This document shows, piece after piece, positions 31,785 to 52,816 of a stretch of 64,000 nucleotides of DNA. The notes beneath the pieces are model-generated. The model was not told where the DNA came from. It saw nothing but the letters and a program-made list of their open reading frames with translations, and searched no databases. Origin of the DNA: Escherichia phage vB_EcoM_KWBSE43-6; the sequence record NC_048186.1. One strand, 5' to 3'. How positions within the stretch are numbered: position 1 is the stretch's first letter; the number at the start of each line of letters is the position of its first letter. Position numbers and translations under genes: made by a program.

Positions 31785-31812
31785 AAACCCCGCCATGTGC
31801 GGGGTTTTTCTT
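31785..31812 (+). terminator. rho-independent terminator (sequence repeated at 49594)
   Basis: AAACCCCGC catgt GCGGGGTTT TTCTTT. Confidence 0.65.
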
Positions 31813-42544: not shown

Positions 42545-43534
42545 ATGTCTAATATCACAATCGTTGGTGACCAATACGCATGGGAAAACAAATATCGCCC
42601 GGACAATCTGGACGAAATCGTTCTCCCCCAGGACGTCCGTGCCAAGATCCATGGCTATATCACTGGTGGCAATGGCAACATCCCGTCAATGCTGTTCTAC
42701 TCACCGAAACCGGGTACTGGTAAGACCACGACTGCTCTGGCGGTTTGTAATGAAATCGGCTGCGTCAAGCCGCTGATGATCAACGCATCCCTGGACAACA
42801 ACATCGACACCATCCGCGACAAAGTTATCCAGTATTCGACTGGCGTCAGCGTATATGGCGGACGGAAAGTCGTTATCCTGGATGAAGCCGAGCGCCTGTC
42901 TATGGCCGCTCAGGAATCGTTGAAAGGTATTATCGAGAAGGTGAGCAAAAACTGCTCGTTTATCCTCACCACCAACTCGAAATCCCGTCTGAACGAACCG
43001 CTGGTTTCCCGCTGCCGTGAAATCGACTTCATCTGGACCGACAAAGAAGCACATGAAGTGCAGCTACAGTTCATGCGGCGCTGTGCTGAAATCCTTGCTG
43101 CTGAAAACGTCGAAGTCGATCTGAAAGTCCTCGGCCGGATCATTCCTCAGTTCTTCCCGGACAACCGTAAGATCATGGGCATCTTGCAAGACAATGCCTC
43201 CACCTACGGAAAAATTGATGAACGCGCTTTGGCCGTCGTCAACGCAGGCGGTATGCGCCAGCTGGTTGAAGAGATGAAGAAAAACAACTGGGACGGCGTT
43301 CGCCAATGGGTGACTGATAATCAGAACTACATCGGCGATGATTTCTATTCCCGTTTCTTCCATTTCTGTGTGCCGCAGGATAAGGACAAGCCACGGGCTA
43401 TCGAAACGACTAGCATCGTCGATATGGTCGCTCTCTGCGGTCAGGCGCAGATTGAACACAGACAGGCTGGTGACGTTTGGCTGCATGCGGTTTATTTCCT
43501 GACCAACGTCATGCTCAACATTAAGTGGAGCTGA
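42545..43534 (+). CDS. gp44: clamp loader large subunit gp44 (AAA+)
   Basis: WENKYRP, Walker A SPKPGTGKTT, Walker B ILDEAER, sensor SRCREIDF; matches T4 gp44. Confidence 0.9.
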   Translation: MSNITIVGDQYAWENKYRPDNLDEIVLPQDVRAKIHGYITGGNGNIPSMLFYSPKPGTGKTTTALAVCNEIGCVKPLMINASLDNNIDTIRDKVIQYSTGVSVYGGRKVVILDEAERLSMAAQESLKGIIEKVSKNCSFILTTNSKSRLNEPLVSRCREIDFIWTDKEAHEVQLQFMRRCAEILAAENVEVDLKVLGRIIPQFFPDNRKIMGILQDNASTYGKIDERALAVVNAGGMRQLVEEMKKNNWDGVRQWVTDNQNYIGDDFYSRFFHFCVPQDKDKPRAIETTSIVDMVALCGQAQIEHRQAGDVWLHAVYFLTNVMLNIKWS

Positions 43535-45406: not shown

Positions 45407-46624
45407 ATGAAAGATAAACAGTCAGACATCCAATATTGCGGTGTCCGTGAAGATAAAATCAAATCAGCTGAACCAATTCTCAGTCCTTTCCATCGTAAGC
45501 TGTCCTATGATTGGATGGATGAACGTTACAAAATCCACGTGAGAAAGGACGTCCAGCGCCTTCCTTCTCCCTGGACAGAAAACGAGATACTACGGCAGGT
45601 CAAGTTCTGTAACGTCCGGAGAGAGCACGACAGGCAGTCTCAGCATCTTATCCGCAATATTGTCGAGAACAACAACCTGTCTCTGGCCGACAAGATGTTC
45701 AACTGCCTTCTGTTTCGTATGTTCAACATGTGGGATCCTATCGAACATGTTCTAGAAGGCCCGGTCTCCATCAATGATTTCCGTAATATCAATTTGGATC
45801 GAACTCGTGAACGGTTTGCGGACTTTGATAAAAAAGGCGGCGTGACATTCACCAATGCTTTCAACACAGGCGGTCTAAAGCAATGTTTGGCCTTCCCTGA
45901 ACTGGCAGTGACTGGAAAGCCCGCCAGCCCCAGCAAAATGATGGTGAAAGTCTTCGAGAACGAAGGACCGATGAAGTTTTATGTCGGTGAAATGAAATAC
46001 AAAGATGCCAAGTCTTTGGCGGAAGATAATCCAGGGTCAGTAACAATCGAAGGGTGGGAACCGCATATGGGGATGCGTGTTGTCCGGTTCCTGAAATCGT
46101 TTGTTACCCATAACCCTCATTTCTTCCATTCATTGTTGGGGTTCAATTCACCGCTATCTGTTTATGAAGAACTCCTTAACAAAGTTGAAGGCCTCGGACC
46201 ATTCTTGGCATATCAGGTTTGGGTTGACTTCACGTACAACCCGGATTATCCGTTTAGTGAAAACCATTTCACTATCGCCGGGCCGGGGTGCCGCGCCGGG
46301 ATTGATCTGTTGTTCCTGGATAAAGACGGGATGACACATGAAGAATGTATCTTCTGGCTGCGTGACAATCAGGATGATGTGTATCGGCAATATGGTTATG
46401 AACGTGATGCGTTTTGGTCAGCAGAAGAGCCGTATGACCGTTGTATGAACGTCATGCAGCTGGAAAACATGTTCTGCGAGCTGAGCAAATACACCCGTTG
46501 TGTTGAGGCTGTCATGCGCGGCGAGAAACCTCGAGGCAAGGTTGGATACAATGGCGGGGAAGTGTATACCGCTCCTAAGACCCAAGTCCGCTCTATCAAC
46601 CTCCTAGAAAGGATGAAGAAATGA
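45407..46624 (+). CDS. hypothetical protein, 405 aa
   Basis: ATG 45407 with GAGGA upstream; no motif recognised by eye. Confidence 0.6.
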   Translation: MKDKQSDIQYCGVREDKIKSAEPILSPFHRKLSYDWMDERYKIHVRKDVQRLPSPWTENEILRQVKFCNVRREHDRQSQHLIRNIVENNNLSLADKMFNCLLFRMFNMWDPIEHVLEGPVSINDFRNINLDRTRERFADFDKKGGVTFTNAFNTGGLKQCLAFPELAVTGKPASPSKMMVKVFENEGPMKFYVGEMKYKDAKSLAEDNPGSVTIEGWEPHMGMRVVRFLKSFVTHNPHFFHSLLGFNSPLSVYEELLNKVEGLGPFLAYQVWVDFTYNPDYPFSENHFTIAGPGCRAGIDLLFLDKDGMTHEECIFWLRDNQDDVYRQYGYERDAFWSAEEPYDRCMNVMQLENMFCELSKYTRCVEAVMRGEKPRGKVGYNGGEVYTAPKTQVRSINLLERMKK

Positions 46625-47028
46625 AACCTGTGAAGTGCCACCGTTCTTGGAAAGTATGCCCGGCATGTTCAAGCCGGGCCACAAAGATGATTGAATTTGA
46701 GACTGGCTTGTATCGTTGTCAGATCTGCTTTCATCGTTATTCGGATCCAGCTGGTCGTTCTTTGGTTGATAAGAAGTACAAATTCAAAATATTGTTGGGG
46801 ACTTCTGAACAATATGAATACACTGTGGTGGGCGACTCTCTTTCTCAGATTAATCTTCATGTCCTGGAAAAGATTTCCCATTATGATAAAAATTGTGAAC
46901 GTCCTGTGCGAGTTGTCAAAACTCCAAAGGGATACCCGGAAGGCACTCGCAGTGTTGTCGTGGCTGGATACACAAGATTTGACGGTAAGAGATTCAGAAG
47001 TATCCGAATTAATATGATCCCGGTTTAA
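46621..47028 (+). CDS. zinc-ribbon protein, 135 aa
   Basis: ATGA overlap with upstream gene; CPAC-x17-CQIC cysteine pairs near N-terminus. Confidence 0.55.
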   Translation: MKPVKCHRSWKVCPACSSRATKMIEFETGLYRCQICFHRYSDPAGRSLVDKKYKFKILLGTSEQYEYTVVGDSLSQINLHVLEKISHYDKNCERPVRVVKTPKGYPEGTRSVVVAGYTRFDGKRFRSIRINMIPV

Positions 47029-47123: not shown

Positions 47124-49160
47124 ATGTCAGATTTTAAACCCTTCGCAGTTGCTGTAAAGAATCAAATCACCGCGATGTCCAGCAATGGCCTGTACATGAC
47201 TTCGGTTGACAAAGACGCCCTGTGGGATCTGTACCTGTCATCTTTCCCGGAAGGCACGAACAACATCTACCGCGAGCGCACTGAGCACGATTGCACCTGC
47301 TGCAAGCAATTCATCCGTAACATCGGCGGCGTCGTATCGATTGACGCTGATCTGAACCTGGTTACTGTGTGGGACAGCGTCAATCTGGGTAACGAATACG
47401 AAGTGGTGGCGGCAGCGCTGGCCAAATATGTCAAGCAGCACAACATCGTCGGCGTTTACTTCAACGATTCAGCTAAGGTGAGCGTAGAAAGCAACCACGA
47501 AATGGGTGAAAACGGTAAAGTCCGCACCTACGACCATTTCCACGCCGTTCTGAACAATAAATTCGTCCTGCGCGGCGAAGATATCGCCTCCACCAAAGGC
47601 GAAATTTCCCAATCCATTGAAGTATTTGAGCGCAGCATGCGTGAGCTGACTATGGAATCGGCTGAAATCGTCCTGGAACTGATCGATCAGAATTCTCTGT
47701 ATCGCGGCGAAGAGCATCGTTCGGCTGTACAAAGTTTTGTGCAGAGCAAAACCGAATACATGAAAATTCGCTCCGATCTGAAACAACTTTGGGCCTGGCG
47801 AACTGGTTGGTTGTCTAAAAACCATAAGCCGTTCGGCATCCGCAATACTGTCATCGGCACCCTGCTGACCGATCTTTCTGACGGCGTTGAAATGGAAAAG
47901 GCGGTGAAATCCTTTGAAACCAAAGTCGCTCCGACCAACTACCGCCGCCCGACTGCCCTGGTCACCAAAGGTATGATCGAAAAGGCGCAGAAAACGGTTG
48001 CCGAACTCGGCCTGACTGAATCTTTGGGTCGCCGCTATGCGAAGTATGAAGACCTGACGATCAACAACGTGCTGTTCGCCGATATCGATGCGCGGAAAGC
48101 TATGGATCCGTTCGATCAATTGGCGCAGGAAGTCAAAGTGACTGAAAAGTCGCTGGGTAAAATTGAAGAGATCAGCGTCGATGATTTCATCAAAAACGTT
48201 ATCCCGAAAGCGCGTTCCATGGAAGTGATGTTTGAAGGACGTCATACCGCCAACCTGATGTCTCTGGTCGCACCGGAAACTCAAGGCGCTCCGAACCTGT
48301 TCAAATGGGGTAATAATTTCTCCTGGTCCTACAACGGTGAAGTTGCTGATTCCATCAAAGAGCGCGTGAAAGCCGCTGGTGGTAACGTTGATTCATTCCT
48401 GCGCATTTCGCTGGCCTGGTTCAACAATGACGACCTGGACCTGCACATGTACACTCCGACGAACGAACACATTTATTTCTCTCGCGGTTGCCGCCGTTCT
48501 TACCATACTGGTGGTGAGTTGGATATTGACATGAACGGTATGGATGGGATCAACAAAGAGCGTAAACCGGTTGAGAACATCTTCTTCAAAGACAAGAACA
48601 TGCTGCGTGATGGCGTGTACCGTTTCATCGTCGACAACTATGCCCAGCGTGAAACCATCGACACCGGGTTCATCGTTGAGGTGGAATATGAAGGCGACCT
48701 GAAACGTTTCTCCTGTGAAAAAGGTCTGAAGAATAAACAGCAGATGACCGTCATTGAACTGCGCGTCAAAGACAAAAAGGTTGTTGAAATTCAGTCTTCC
48801 CTGGTGCCGACAACTGGCGTGGAAACTGAAATTTGGGGTATCCGTACCCAGAATTTCCAGAAGGTGCAACTGGTCCTGAATTCTCCTAACCACTGGGACG
48901 GTGAACAGACCGGAAACCGACATCTGTTCTTTATCCTGGAAGGTTGTATCAACCCGGCCAGCACTCGCGGCTTCTACAATGAATATCTGAAGCCGGAATT
49001 GGCACCGCATGGCAAGGTTTTTGAAATGTTGGGCGCTAAAATGAGAGCAGAACCGAGTGATAAGCAACTCAGCGGCCTGGGCTTCTCTTCCACTCAGCGC
49101 AATTATGTCCTGGTGAAGGTAAGCGGTTCATTTAATCGTGTAGTCAAAGTCGTTTTTTAA
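47124..49160 (+). CDS. hypothetical protein, 678 aa
   Basis: Long ORF with good start context; HDCTCCKQF cysteine cluster near N-terminus; no Walker motifs. Confidence 0.6.
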   Translation: MSDFKPFAVAVKNQITAMSSNGLYMTSVDKDALWDLYLSSFPEGTNNIYRERTEHDCTCCKQFIRNIGGVVSIDADLNLVTVWDSVNLGNEYEVVAAALAKYVKQHNIVGVYFNDSAKVSVESNHEMGENGKVRTYDHFHAVLNNKFVLRGEDIASTKGEISQSIEVFERSMRELTMESAEIVLELIDQNSLYRGEEHRSAVQSFVQSKTEYMKIRSDLKQLWAWRTGWLSKNHKPFGIRNTVIGTLLTDLSDGVEMEKAVKSFETKVAPTNYRRPTALVTKGMIEKAQKTVAELGLTESLGRRYAKYEDLTINNVLFADIDARKAMDPFDQLAQEVKVTEKSLGKIEEISVDDFIKNVIPKARSMEVMFEGRHTANLMSLVAPETQGAPNLFKWGNNFSWSYNGEVADSIKERVKAAGGNVDSFLRISLAWFNNDDLDLHMYTPTNEHIYFSRGCRRSYHTGGELDIDMNGMDGINKERKPVENIFFKDKNMLRDGVYRFIVDNYAQRETIDTGFIVEVEYEGDLKRFSCEKGLKNKQQMTVIELRVKDKKVVEIQSSLVPTTGVETEIWGIRTQNFQKVQLVLNSPNHWDGEQTGNRHLFFILEGCINPASTRGFYNEYLKPELAPHGKVFEMLGAKMRAEPSDKQLSGLGFSSTQRNYVLVKVSGSFNRVVKVVF

Positions 49161-49593: not shown

Positions 49594-49620
49594 AACCCCG
49601 CCATGTGCGGGGTTTGTTGT
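49594..49620 (+). terminator. rho-independent terminator (same hairpin as 31785)
   Basis: ACCCCGCCATGTGCGGGGTTT identical to 31786-31806. Confidence 0.6.
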
Positions 49621-49694
49621 ATCCATCAGCAATAAAGCCTCATTCAATATACGTGGGCATATAATATCCTAGTGTTAAACAGTGGAGAAGATTT

Positions 49695-50051
49695 ATGTCG
49701 GTCAAAATGAAAGGTGCCGAGTTTAAAGCATACTACGATGACTCAGAGTATTGGGTTCAGGATGCTTGGCATGATTATCACAACATAAAGGTTAATGGCG
49801 AATATATCGACGATATTGAAACTGAGAATATTCCCGACGAGGCTGATGTGGTTATTGAGTCGGGGATAGTTTATATTCCCATCAGAAGTGAATCCGGTTA
49901 TGAAGAAAAAGAAGTCCAACTGGTCACTCACATCAAGAACTGGCGCAAACAGCAGAAATTTTCTACTATTGTCGTGGTAGTTGAAAAAGACAAAGCTGAA
50001 GAAATTATAGCCTCAATTAAAACGATACCTGGCGTCAATACCGTCAAGTGA
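49695..50051 (+). CDS. hypothetical protein, 118 aa
   Basis: ATG 49695 after GGAGAAG; perfect TATAAT at 49660. Confidence 0.5.
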   Translation: MSVKMKGAEFKAYYDDSEYWVQDAWHDYHNIKVNGEYIDDIETENIPDEADVVIESGIVYIPIRSESGYEEKEVQLVTHIKNWRKQQKFSTIVVVVEKDKAEEIIASIKTIPGVNTVK

Positions 50052-50058
50052 GGCGATA

Positions 50059-50202
50059 ATGGATTCCTGTCTATTAGATCCCGAGAACGTTCTTGTGGTT
50101 GAAATTGAAAACAACAAGCCGTTCATTTTGAAAATGTTGGAGAAGGATAATAATCCTGAAACCAATCCTAAACTATCCCAAAAGGGGAATAACGATGATT
50201 GA
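50059..50202 (+). CDS. small protein, 47 aa
   Basis: ATG 50059 after GAGG; not in ORF track; overlaps next gene start. Confidence 0.3.
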   Translation: MDSCLLDPENVLVVEIENNKPFILKMLEKDNNPETNPKLSQKGNNDD

Positions 50203-52448
50203 ATCATTAGAATTTAAGAATGCCACACAGACGGTCGCTCCTTCCAATCACGTCATCGTCGTTGACATTTCTTATTCCATGTGTTATGCGCTGCCGAAAC
50301 TGCGCCAGCACCTGAAAGAAAACCTGCCCTCCCTGGTTAAGCCGGAAGACACCGTCAGTATTCTGTACTTCTCTTCTCGTGGCGACTTCGGTACTGTGTT
50401 CGCTGGGCGCCAGGTCACCAACGCATCTGACCTGAGTGAGCTGGGTAAACTGATCGATCGCTTCCTGCAACCAACTGGCTGCACCGGATTTGTTGAGCCG
50501 CTCAAGCTGGCTATCGAAACCGCCAACGATCTGAAAAAGTCCGGCGTCATCAATTCCCTGGTGTTCATGACCGACGGTTATGACAACTGCTGGCGTTCCA
50601 GTGAAATTCTCGCGGTCGCAGAGCAGCTGCCAAAGGCGTACGACAACATCACGCTGATCGAATACGGCTGGAACTGCAACCGGGAACTGCTGCAGAAAAT
50701 GGCAGAGTGCTCTGGTGCCACCCATGTATTCGCCGAAGGCCAGGAAGAATATCAGATCGAACTGGAAACAGCGATGGTTTCTGTCGCTCCGCGCGTTCGC
50801 GTTGATTTCAGTATCATCTATTCCTATGCCGTTTATATCGAAAACGGGATTCCGACCATCCTGGCCGCCCAGTCTGATGAAGACCATCCTATCAATTACG
50901 TCAACATCCCTGAGAGCGTCTCTAAGCTGTGGGTTGTTGATCCTGATATGATCGACCAACTGGATAACCTGGCGGACGTTGAAGCGGCATATGTGCTGGC
51001 TCTCTTTGGCGTGCATACTATGGATGCCGACCTGGTGTGGGCCGCGCTGAAAAAGACTGGCGATGTGCGCTTCATTAAACAGTACACCAACTGCTTCACC
51101 AAGCAGGATTATTCCAACATCAAAACTGACATCACAGCAGCGATTGTAGACCCGGCGCTGCGCGGTGTGGACGGTATCGATTACAATCTGGTGCCGCCGG
51201 AAGACGCAACTACTGTTGTTGATGTTCTGACTTACCTGGCGGGAGCAGATGCACAACTGGTTGTTGACCATCCCCTGTTCTCTTACAAGCGGATCGGTCG
51301 CGGTACGGTACAAAAAGCCGACGATACCGAAGACAAGCTGGCGGCAGAAATTGCCGAAGCCAAATCTAAAGAAGAGCGTAAAGCGCTGGCCCTGAAACTG
51401 GCTGAGCACGAAGACTGGACTCCTGTGTTTGAGCCGGTGAAAGGCGCGGGCGTTCCCATCAGCAATCTGGTTTACAACTCGGCCCGCCCGAACATCAGTC
51501 TGCAGACTGTGCAAAACGGGACCGTCATCATCCCGAAGTTCGCACAAAAGAAATACGATCTGCCTGAATCTATTGATACGTGGCAGTGGAAGAACTACAC
51601 CAAAGAAATACGATCTGCCTGAATCTATTGATACGTGGCAGTGGAAGAACTACACCATCGTCAAAGACGGTATCATCCATATGAAGACCCTTCCTGTGGT
51701 CTGCTCGGTGGAAACCGTATCTGAACTGGTTAGCAAAGGCGTTGAAGTTTACGGCGGGCCGGAAGTGTTCATCGTAAATCTGGGCAGCGTTCCTCTGGTT
51801 AACCGCGCGATGGTTAAGAACATCAGCGCCGCGCAGTTCTTTGCTGACCACGTCCGTCTGGAATCCCTGAAAGCCAAGCAGAAGGTTCTCAAATATTTCC
51901 GTGACGAACTGGTTGGGAAAGGTAATGCCGTGGGCCTGGCAGGCAAATACGGCTTTGAAGCGGCTGAGTTTTTGTCTGCGAATGGCATCCGCGATTACGG
52001 CTTCTCTCCGAAGACCGCTTCGGTTGAGTCTACTGATTTCTACATGAGCCGCGAACTCAATGTGAAGATCAAAGGCGCTTCCTCGCTGCCGTCAATTGCC
52101 GCCGTTCTGAAGAAACAGGCCGACAACAAAAAACTGAACGCAGCTGATCAGCTGATCGCTAATGCGCTGGCAGAATACAACGCCTTTGTCAAATCTCCGG
52201 CGGTGACTGCAGTTCCGGAAGCAACGCAGGCCAAGATCATTGAATCTTGGATCAGTGATGCTGCCAAGGCTGCTATCACCCAAGTCCGTGAGCTGAACAA
52301 GACCCTGTCCAAATCTCTGTATGCCATCGTTGCAGGCCATGGCTGGTTCACCGACCTGGATCTGGAAGAGTCCACCATGGAAGTGGAAGTTGATGGCGTC
52401 AAATACACCGTCAGTGCAGTCCTGGAAGAGAAAGAGATCAAAATCTAA
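50195..52448 (+). pseudogene. vWA-domain protein gene split into two ORFs (50195-51622, 51573-52448) by a 55-bp tandem duplication
   Basis: N-terminal vWA/MIDAS motifs (VVVDISYSM, FMTDG); removing one repeat copy restores a single ORF of about 732 aa with KKYDLPESIDTWQWKNYT read once. Confidence 0.6.
51547..51656. repeat. perfect 55-bp direct tandem duplication (2 copies)
   Basis: AAAGAAATACGATCTGCCTGAATCTATTGATACGTGGCAGTGGAAGAACTACACC at 51547-51601 and 51602-51656; 55 is not a multiple of 3. Confidence 0.9.
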
Positions 52449-52456
52449 TCAACTGT

Positions 52457-52478
52457 GCCGGGGAAACCCGGCCTTTTC
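52457..52478 (+). terminator. rho-independent terminator
   Basis: GCCGGG gaaa CCCGGC CTTTTC. Confidence 0.55.
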
Positions 52479-52492
52479 ATAAGGTATCCCAA

Positions 52493-52816
52493 ATGTCTAA
52501 GAATGTGTCTTATATCGATGTCATGCGCTTCCTTGTCCAGTATGCAAGTGACAATCTGAATATGGAACTGTGGCGTGAGAAGAAACACTCCGTAACAATA
52601 CAATCCGCGATTGACAAAATCGAAGATCAGCTGGAATCCCTGGCTCCTCTGCGCGTCAAAGAACATCTGGGTGGCGATGAACTTGACGCGATAGAGATCA
52701 TCATGGACCTGGAAGAAGAATATGATGTAGAGATCACGGATTATTGGGTCGGTTCTCATAAAGACGACCCAACCCTGGGTGAATTGGCAGAGCATGTGGT
52801 GCATCTTTTAAAATAA
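52493..52816 (+). CDS. acyl carrier protein-like protein lacking the phosphopantetheine-attachment serine, 107 aa
   Basis: EHLGGDELDAIEIIMDLEEEYDVEITD aligns with ACP [26 protein letters not shown]; canonical DSL is DEL. Confidence 0.65.
   Translation: MSKNVSYIDVMRFLVQYASDNLNMELWREKKHSVTIQSAIDKIEDQLESLAPLRVKEHLGGDELDAIEIIMDLEEEYDVEITDYWVGSHKDDPTLGELAEHVVHLLK

Follow-up and report, generated by a model that had tools for sequence, protein, structure and literature searches.

Among the described von Willebrand A (vWA) proteins closest to the one studied here, ArnB and ArnE of Sulfolobus and the Catenulispora protein 4fx5 are cytoplasmic and built from three parts, a vWA domain, a beta-sandwich and a helical bundle, the so-called "Sec23/24 core motif". 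The arrangement of a vWA domain in a beta-sandwich together with a helical domain was described for ArnB, 4fx5, YfbK and the Sec23/24 core (PMC12852372). Here, we analyzed a vWA gene located in a 64,000-nucleotide stretch of DNA (the window) of Escherichia phage vB_EcoM_KWBSE43-6 (NC_048186.1). In the deposited sequence the gene is interrupted by a 55-bp tandem duplication. As the best joint explanation we favor, with moderate confidence, that this duplication is an assembly artifact and that the intact gene encodes a 732-aa cytoplasmic vWA protein which is not part of the virion and acts as a stand-alone adaptor via its MIDAS, an adhesion site which depends on a metal ion.

A first-pass annotation of the window had treated 50195-52448 as one gene. 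The start (ATG at 50195) and the end (52448) were correct; the interval is, however, not a single open reading frame (ORF), and the "reconstructed protein" of that annotation had bridged the duplication without reporting it. In the ORF list of the window, the ATG at 50195 starts an ORF of 475 aa which ends at 51622 after a frameshift, while a second ORF in another frame covers 51573-52448. The peptide KKYDLPESIDTWQWKNYT is present in the translations of both. Tandem Repeats Finder (TRF, period 55) and exact comparison identified a perfect 55-bp tandem duplication at 51547-51601 and 51602-51656. A length of 55 bp is not divisible by three, and the frame is therefore broken by the second copy. 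Deletion of one copy yielded a continuous protein of 732 aa, corresponding to the intact 2199-bp coding sequence (CDS) of the relatives. The parts of the gene are the following:

50195..51601, plus strand: vWA gene codons 1-469, with the vWA domain (~aa 1-195), the beta-sandwich (~200-250), the helical domain (~252-350) and the beginning of the C-terminal module specific to the family
51547..51601, no strand assigned: first copy of the 55-bp unit, genuine gene sequence (TRF and exact-match scan)
51602..51656, no strand assigned: second, perfect and frame-shifting copy, most likely a SPAdes overlap (k=55) left untrimmed, absent from the related records listed
51657..52448, plus strand: vWA gene codons 470-732 and stop, the remaining C-terminal module (by reconstruction)

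In ~45 related Klebsiella phage records the vWA gene is a single 2199-bp CDS for 732 aa. Its labels are "VWFA domain-containing protein" and "hypothetical protein", and automated annotation also gave "tail protein" or "minor tail protein". The reconstructed protein shows 9 differences to its relative P0001. A 201-bp query spanning the duplication was matched over 146 bp in two pieces, with the second copy found in none of the related Klebsiella Taipeivirus records listed; 36 records cover the whole query. The 475-aa ORF is an exact match to QBQ79028.1/YP_009822569.1 (HOV43_gp155, UniProt A0A482MYZ4) of Escherichia phage vB_EcoM_KWBSE43-6, located on a contig of 158,607 bp, and all other listed members of the 90% cluster of this entry have 732 aa.

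A circular SPAdes contig carries a direct repeat of length k at both ends, and a k-bp tandem duplication results when these ends are joined and the contig is rotated untrimmed. The duplication at 51547-51656 is the sole exact k-length tandem duplication within the window. In the study of Korf et al. (2019), SPAdes was run at k=55 on the Illumina genomes, and contigs without detectable ends were re-arranged (PMC6563267). Because the length of 55 bp, the perfect identity, the uniqueness to the KWBSE43-6 record and the stated SPAdes method agree, it is very probable that 51602-51656 is an assembly artifact, i.e., an untrimmed k=55 overlap, and that the frameshift does not exist in the phage. The end overlap of the circular contig would have been kept when the KWBSE43-6 genome was re-arranged, and because of these extra 55 bp the deposited 475-aa protein would be a truncation artifact. 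A genuine duplication, in which slippage produced the frameshift in the isolate, is distinctly unlikely. It is present in the sequence as deposited, short imperfect microhomology (CACa/CACc) flanks the unit, and the sequencing platform of KWBSE43-6 was left unstated; however, the unit has exactly the length of the stated assembler k-mer with perfect identity, the contigs of the source paper were re-arranged by hand, and the unit occurs in none of the other related records or cluster members listed. The truncated protein would then comprise the vWA, sandwich and helical domains (469 aa plus a 6-aa tail), and the vWA gene would be dispensable in the laboratory. A programmed frameshift was ruled out, as the ORF is contiguous in the relatives and the shift is due to the duplication. 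With the artifact as the preferred explanation, the 475-aa entries YP_009822569.1 and A0A482MYZ4 in RefSeq and UniProt are very probably truncations caused by an untrimmed 55-mer, and further SPAdes-assembled, re-arranged genomes can be screened for this type of error. Other re-arranged SPAdes genomes of the same study may hold similar junctions.

The reconstructed protein was then analyzed for its domains. The MIDAS residues are encoded as follows:

50264..50278, plus strand: MIDAS DxSxS motif, D24-I-S26-Y-S28 (DISYS, aa 24-28), invariant in the 71-sequence alignment
50483-50485 and 50573-50575: further MIDAS residues, T97 and D127, respectively

All five MIDAS positions (D24, S26, S28, T97 and D127) were invariant among the 71 aligned homologues, and the MIDAS is also intact in g068 of Bacillus phage AR9. 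Using the window protein alone as query, a weak NCBIfam match to the vWA part of TIGR03788 was obtained (E=1.5e-6; 26.9 bits versus a cut-off of 551), while PADLOC gave no match and a phmmer search of the PDB found nothing. Several homologues (27-47% identity) passed the Pfam gathering scores for VWA or VWA_2 in our own scan, and many of the 118 full-length homologues carry precomputed Pfam vWA matches. In the PDB the family profile matched vWA domains only, among them those of ITIH1, ArnB, TRAP and alpha2delta-1, with a best E-value of 1.5e-5. Structure prediction, one of the checks proposed by the first-pass annotation, recovered the vWA fold in an AlphaFold2 model built on the family alignment (mean predicted local distance difference test score, pLDDT, of 90.7). 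The invariant MIDAS residues, the model and the PDB profile matches thus bore out the N-terminal vWA domain with DxSxS motif which had been read from the sequence, and the evidence that this phage protein has a vWA fold at its N-terminus, and that the MIDAS in it is complete, is strong. Because the long alignments extend past the ~180-residue vWA domain, and because the model contains a strand before the vWA domain, strands at 200-248 after it and then helices at 252-350, the first ~350 residues are predicted to form a vWA domain inserted in a beta-sandwich plus a helical domain, an architecture known from archaeal ArnB, Catenulispora 4fx5, ITIH and the Sec23/24 core.

The long C-terminal part had been noted before as lacking any recognizable motif, and this description held. 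No Pfam domain was found in the C-terminal half of any of the homologues tested, and the family profile gave no significant PDB match there. In the family alignment, residues ~350-732 are conserved to the same degree as the vWA domain. Searching a representative library of 1.84 billion proteins with residues 250-732 alone resulted in at least 1014 clusters at 50% identity (E<=0.001). The clusters listed are mostly proteins of 700-800 aa with a minority of 375-611 aa, and the match is nearly always C-terminal. Since mostly proteins of 700-800 aa were matched at their C-terminus, the combination of vWA domain and C-terminal part is largely fixed, and the ~380-residue C-terminal module defines the family.

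The protein belongs to PHROG 2426 (E=0), which carries no function label. Its full-length homologues have ~670-810 aa, and tblastn detected the family in 483 phage records. Carriers among the Ackermannviridae are Taipeivirus, Kuttervirus, and Dickeya, Serratia and Aeromonas phages. Further carriers are Straboviridae of the Slopekvirus group (Miro gp117), the GAP161/Miller group, Vibrio phage vB_VmeM-32, Bacillus phage AR9 and Rhizobium phages, and IMG/VR holds many more jumbo-phage contigs of 300-510 kb with the family. It is confined to large phages. The homology of AR9 g068 extends over the full length (hhalign, E=3e-58, 642 columns). By megablast, the region shows ~97% identity to Klebsiella phages belonging to Taipeivirus, a genus of the ViI-like Ackermannviridae; the earlier label of a "T4-like" region is acceptable only loosely, as the phage is not T4 itself but a ViI-like Taipeivirus. 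Catalog entries for the family exist (PHROG 2426; in UniProt, "VWFA domain-containing protein"), its members are uncharacterized, and no characterized phage vWA protein of the PHROG 2426 type was found in the literature. With at least 1000 clusters at 50% identity, the intact vWA protein represents one of the larger uncharacterized families of big phages.

Virion proteomics had also been suggested as a check, and a partial answer is available: the protein is not packaged in meaningful amounts. The Sajous1 homologue, gp185, was represented by 1 spectrum in CsCl-purified virions of this Vi01-like phage compared to 924 for the major capsid protein (PMC10892097), and in the AR9 record g068 has no "virion protein" label though neighboring genes have it. 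Because of these two observations, the vWA protein is not considered a structural virion component. By inspection of the sequence, no obvious N-terminal signal peptide was found. Transcript abundance of AR9 g068 was 0.96, 105.6 and 431.5 fragments per kilobase per million (FPKM) at 5, 20 and 40 min, respectively (PMC5312081, Table S4), which is a profile of late transcription. In the Ackermannviridae, the vWA gene is co-directional among replication and early-type genes. For the analysis of gene neighborhoods, ORFs were called in 87 loci (vWA gene +/-10 kb) and clustered by BLASTP, and the loci were grouped into 24 lineages by vWA identity. We considered a late, non-structural factor of morphogenesis or assembly, with the MIDAS transiently binding a virion component, as possible but improbable. 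The late profile of AR9 g068 resembles that of virion genes, a single spectrum was found in Sajous1 virions, and some automated annotations read "tail protein" or "minor tail protein". However, the gene is co-directional with clamp, clamp-loader, RegA and dUTPase genes in the Ackermannviridae and in the metagenomic locus L005, the T4-type late promoter motif TATAAATA is absent near the vWA gene both in the window and in the loci of Miro and Det7, PHROG 2426 has no function label, and in most lineages the vWA gene is not beside structural genes.

In the proposed mechanism of the preferred adaptor reading, the 732-aa protein, which is not part of the virion, would be cytoplasmic. Mg2+ would be held by D24, S26, S28, T97 and D127, and a partner, either a phage or a conserved host protein, would complete its coordination with a side chain that is acidic or phosphorylated. 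From such metal-mediated binding of a partner side chain the role of a stand-alone adaptor or clamp would follow, with the C-terminal module supplying a family-specific activity or oligomerization. The protein would work without a MoxR-type AAA+ partner and without the DUF8224 protein encoded upstream. Ligand binding via the MIDAS and the adaptor role are our best guess by analogy. We are aware of the fact that several points weigh against the joint explanation. The window protein had no Pfam match at E<=0.01, and the vWA thresholds were not reached. The artifact is very probable rather than proven, as the source paper did not state whether KWBSE43-6 was sequenced on the Illumina or the PacBio platform (PMC6563267). 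Expression timing conflicts between lineages, as AR9 g068 is transcribed late whereas the enterobacterial copies lie in early-type regions, and timing may differ by lineage. Finally, the adaptor mechanism would be an extrapolation from other MIDAS-bearing vWA domains, and a ligand, partner or phenotype is on record for no member of the family.

Within 10 kb of the vWA gene, no neighbor is common to more than 5 of the 24 lineages, which comprise 86 loci. The most widely shared one is the gp44 clamp loader, found nearby in 5 lineages. In the window, the vWA gene is preceded on the same strand by genes for a UvsW helicase, the clamp loader, RegA, a MazG-like pyrophosphatase and a 5-hydroxymethyldeoxyuridine (5-hmdU) DNA kinase, then, nearer to it, by DUF8224 with a zinc-ribbon ORF before it and three small ORFs after it. 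Downstream lie the genes for an acyl carrier protein and a denV-type glycosylase. The earlier statement that no AAA+ gene is nearby was right with respect to a MoxR-type partner; the gp44-like clamp loader at 42545-43534 is itself an AAA+ protein, the only one near the vWA gene. By analogy to pairs such as RavA/ViaA, NorQ/NorD and BchI/BchD, the vWA protein might serve a MoxR-type AAA+ ATPase as its substrate or adaptor, which is extremely improbable here: for all that a vWA domain is present, the clamp loader is the only AAA+ gene conserved nearby, and NorD and BchD score well below the ArnB- and ITIH-type matches.

The features immediately around the vWA gene and further upstream are:

46621-47028: 135-aa zinc-ribbon protein (CPAC...CQIC) upstream of DUF8224, with a linkage to the vWA gene not conserved across lineages
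47124..49160, plus strand: 678-aa gene, DUF8224 (PF26675), with HDCTCC at aa 55-60 and a TerD-like beta-sandwich
49695..50051, plus strand: 118-aa ORF (PHROG 4254), first in an apparent three-gene transcription unit which ends with the vWA gene; hairpin 49596-49612 upstream
50059..50202, plus strand: 47-codon ORF with an 8-nt overlap with the vWA start, possibly translationally coupled, annotated in L001 (6820-6963) and as Det7 gp43
52457..52472, plus strand: terminator-like GC hairpin with T-rich tail directly after the vWA stop
52493-52816: phage acyl carrier protein (PP-binding, E=5e-6), directly 3' of the vWA gene

The 118-aa ORF, the 47-codon ORF and the vWA gene appear to form a unit bounded by the hairpins at 49596-49612 and 52457-52472. 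The 47-codon ORF was found in Ackermannviridae only, and the upstream 123-aa and 118-aa ORFs as well as the downstream acyl carrier protein gene have no counterparts beside distant vWA homologues. An identical 17-nt GC hairpin, CCCCGCCATGTGCGGGG, is present at 31788-31804 and 49596-49612; with flanks ~22 nt are identical, followed by a T-run. The CCCCGCCATGTGCGGGG pair looks like a re-used intrinsic terminator.

The 678-aa protein with the HDCTCC cluster which the first-pass annotation had placed upstream was found at 47124-49160 and is an exact match to QBQ79024.1 (HOV43_gp159) of Escherichia phage vB_EcoM_KWBSE43-6. D56, C57 and C60 did not vary among 60 homologues, at least 90% of which also have C59. 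All 120 homologues listed carry a precomputed PF26675 match, including the 99%-identical P0119; our local Pfam scan gave no match, possibly because the Pfam copy used predates PF26675. The protein, which has more than 5193 homologues, also belongs to PHROG 1735, and the TerD-like fold-search match comprises 116 residues at ~aa 425-550. No literature on PF26675 was found. A tRNA-Thr(GGT) of 91 nt (47534-47624, minus strand), antisense in the DUF8224 CDS, was called by ARAGORN, with no Rfam tRNA match at E<=1, and is probably a false positive. This tRNA is annotated in several GenBank relatives, one of which omits the DUF8224 CDS.

The vWA and 678-aa genes had been viewed as a module, to be checked by co-occurrence across related phages, and the outcome spoke against it. 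DUF8224 occurs in 546 phage records, among them Bacillus, Caulobacter, Xanthomonas, Pseudomonas and Cellulophaga phages, a spectrum unlike that of the 483 vWA records, and is distributed independently of the vWA gene. It adjoins the vWA gene in 2 of the 24 lineages only, the Ackermannviridae group and one single-locus lineage. Because the numbers of Klebsiella records differ (160 with vWA, 79 with DUF8224), Slopekviruses are suggested to carry the vWA gene without DUF8224. As the distributions differ, the genes lie ~85 kb apart in Vibrio phage vB_VmeM-32 and profile-profile comparison revealed no similarity between the families, the pairing is most likely a local adjacency within the Ackermannviridae and not a functional unit. 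The same data bear on a Ter-like pair of a TerY-type vWA protein with DUF8224 as TerD-type Ca2+-binding protein. Despite the TerD-like fold, this pair is very improbable and largely refuted by the distribution, i.e., the different record numbers and host spectra, the rare adjacency, the distance in vB_VmeM-32, unrelated inserts which separate the two genes in relatives, and the lack of profile similarity.

Many relatives carry a gene pair for a ribose-phosphate pyrophosphokinase (Prs-like) and a nicotinamide phosphoribosyltransferase (NAMPT) between DUF8224 and the vWA gene; KWBSE43-6 lacks this pair. The pair of the relatives may resemble the phage NAD+-reconstitution pathway NARP1. In 3 of the 24 lineages, 10 loci in total, jumbo-phage contigs included, have a NAMPT-like gene no more than 10 kb away from the vWA gene; such loci are L013, L024, L026, L027 (~140 bp upstream of the vWA gene) and L047, L066, L068, L074. 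The association is weak, and shared accessory regions alone may account for it. A counter-defense or host-takeover factor, which would sequester a conserved host protein and be encoded in an accessory island with NAD+-salvage genes, is unlikely. Besides the NAMPT-like genes, which lie immediately upstream in several Kuttervirus loci, the points in its favor are an NMNAT/NUDIX gene 6 kb upstream in Miro, a NUDIX gene 2.5 kb away in AR9, and Acb1-like and Acb2/Tad1-like neighbors in L005. However, the NAMPT association is limited to the 3 lineages, nothing came from PADLOC, the protein is large and, unusually for the product of an arms-race gene, conserved along its entire length in phages ranging from enterobacterial ones to those of Bacillus, and the NAMPT and Prs-like pair is absent from KWBSE43-6. 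PHROG 2426 spans enterobacterial Ackermannviridae and Slopekvirus to the Bacillus jumbo phage AR9. A broader idea, which we regard as doubtful, is that the family constitutes an unrecognized class of phage effectors, in which an ArnB/Sec23-24-like MIDAS, joined to a new 380-residue module, would act as a "reader" for residues that are acidic or phosphorylated and would capture a protein of the host or phage which is conserved universally, possibly in NAD+-salvage accessory islands.

Further observations were made in the surrounding region. The 405-aa protein at 45407-46624 strongly matched PF18723 (E=1e-80), the helical domain of the 5-hmdU DNA kinase, and this kinase-like protein points to a possible hypermodification of thymidine in the phage DNA. 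Relatives carry the gene under the labels "terminase small subunit" or "aGPT-Pplase1 domain protein". At 49622-49642 (compared with L001 5624-6399 and L002 5669-9392), the window lacks, besides the Prs-like and NAMPT pair, a 756-bp gene of other Taipeiviruses which was automatically labeled "anti-CRISPR".

As it stands, the finding describes an ordinary "conserved hypothetical" gene and is no surprise. Identification of the ligand would give a function to a gene present in most of the Klebsiella and Salmonella Ackermannviridae and Slopekvirus myoviruses which are therapeutic candidates. Compared to known systems, the Ter (TerD/TerY) system has a conserved linkage of vWA and TerD genes, whereas the TerD-like DUF8224 is linked here only in the few lineages given above. 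ITIH1/ITIH4 and the bacterial vWA proteins of the YfbK or sortase-target type are secreted proteins in which VIT and other domains are present, while the phage protein has no obvious signal peptide or VIT domain. In contrast to ArnB, it has no linked ArnA-like partner with FHA and zinc-finger domains, kinase or phosphatase. It is 13-18% identical to ArnB and 4fx5, twice as long, and contains ~380 extra residues of unassigned fold. Klebsiella phage Miro gp117, Salmonella phage Det7 gp44, Sajous1 gp185 and AR9 g068 belong to the same family over their full length.

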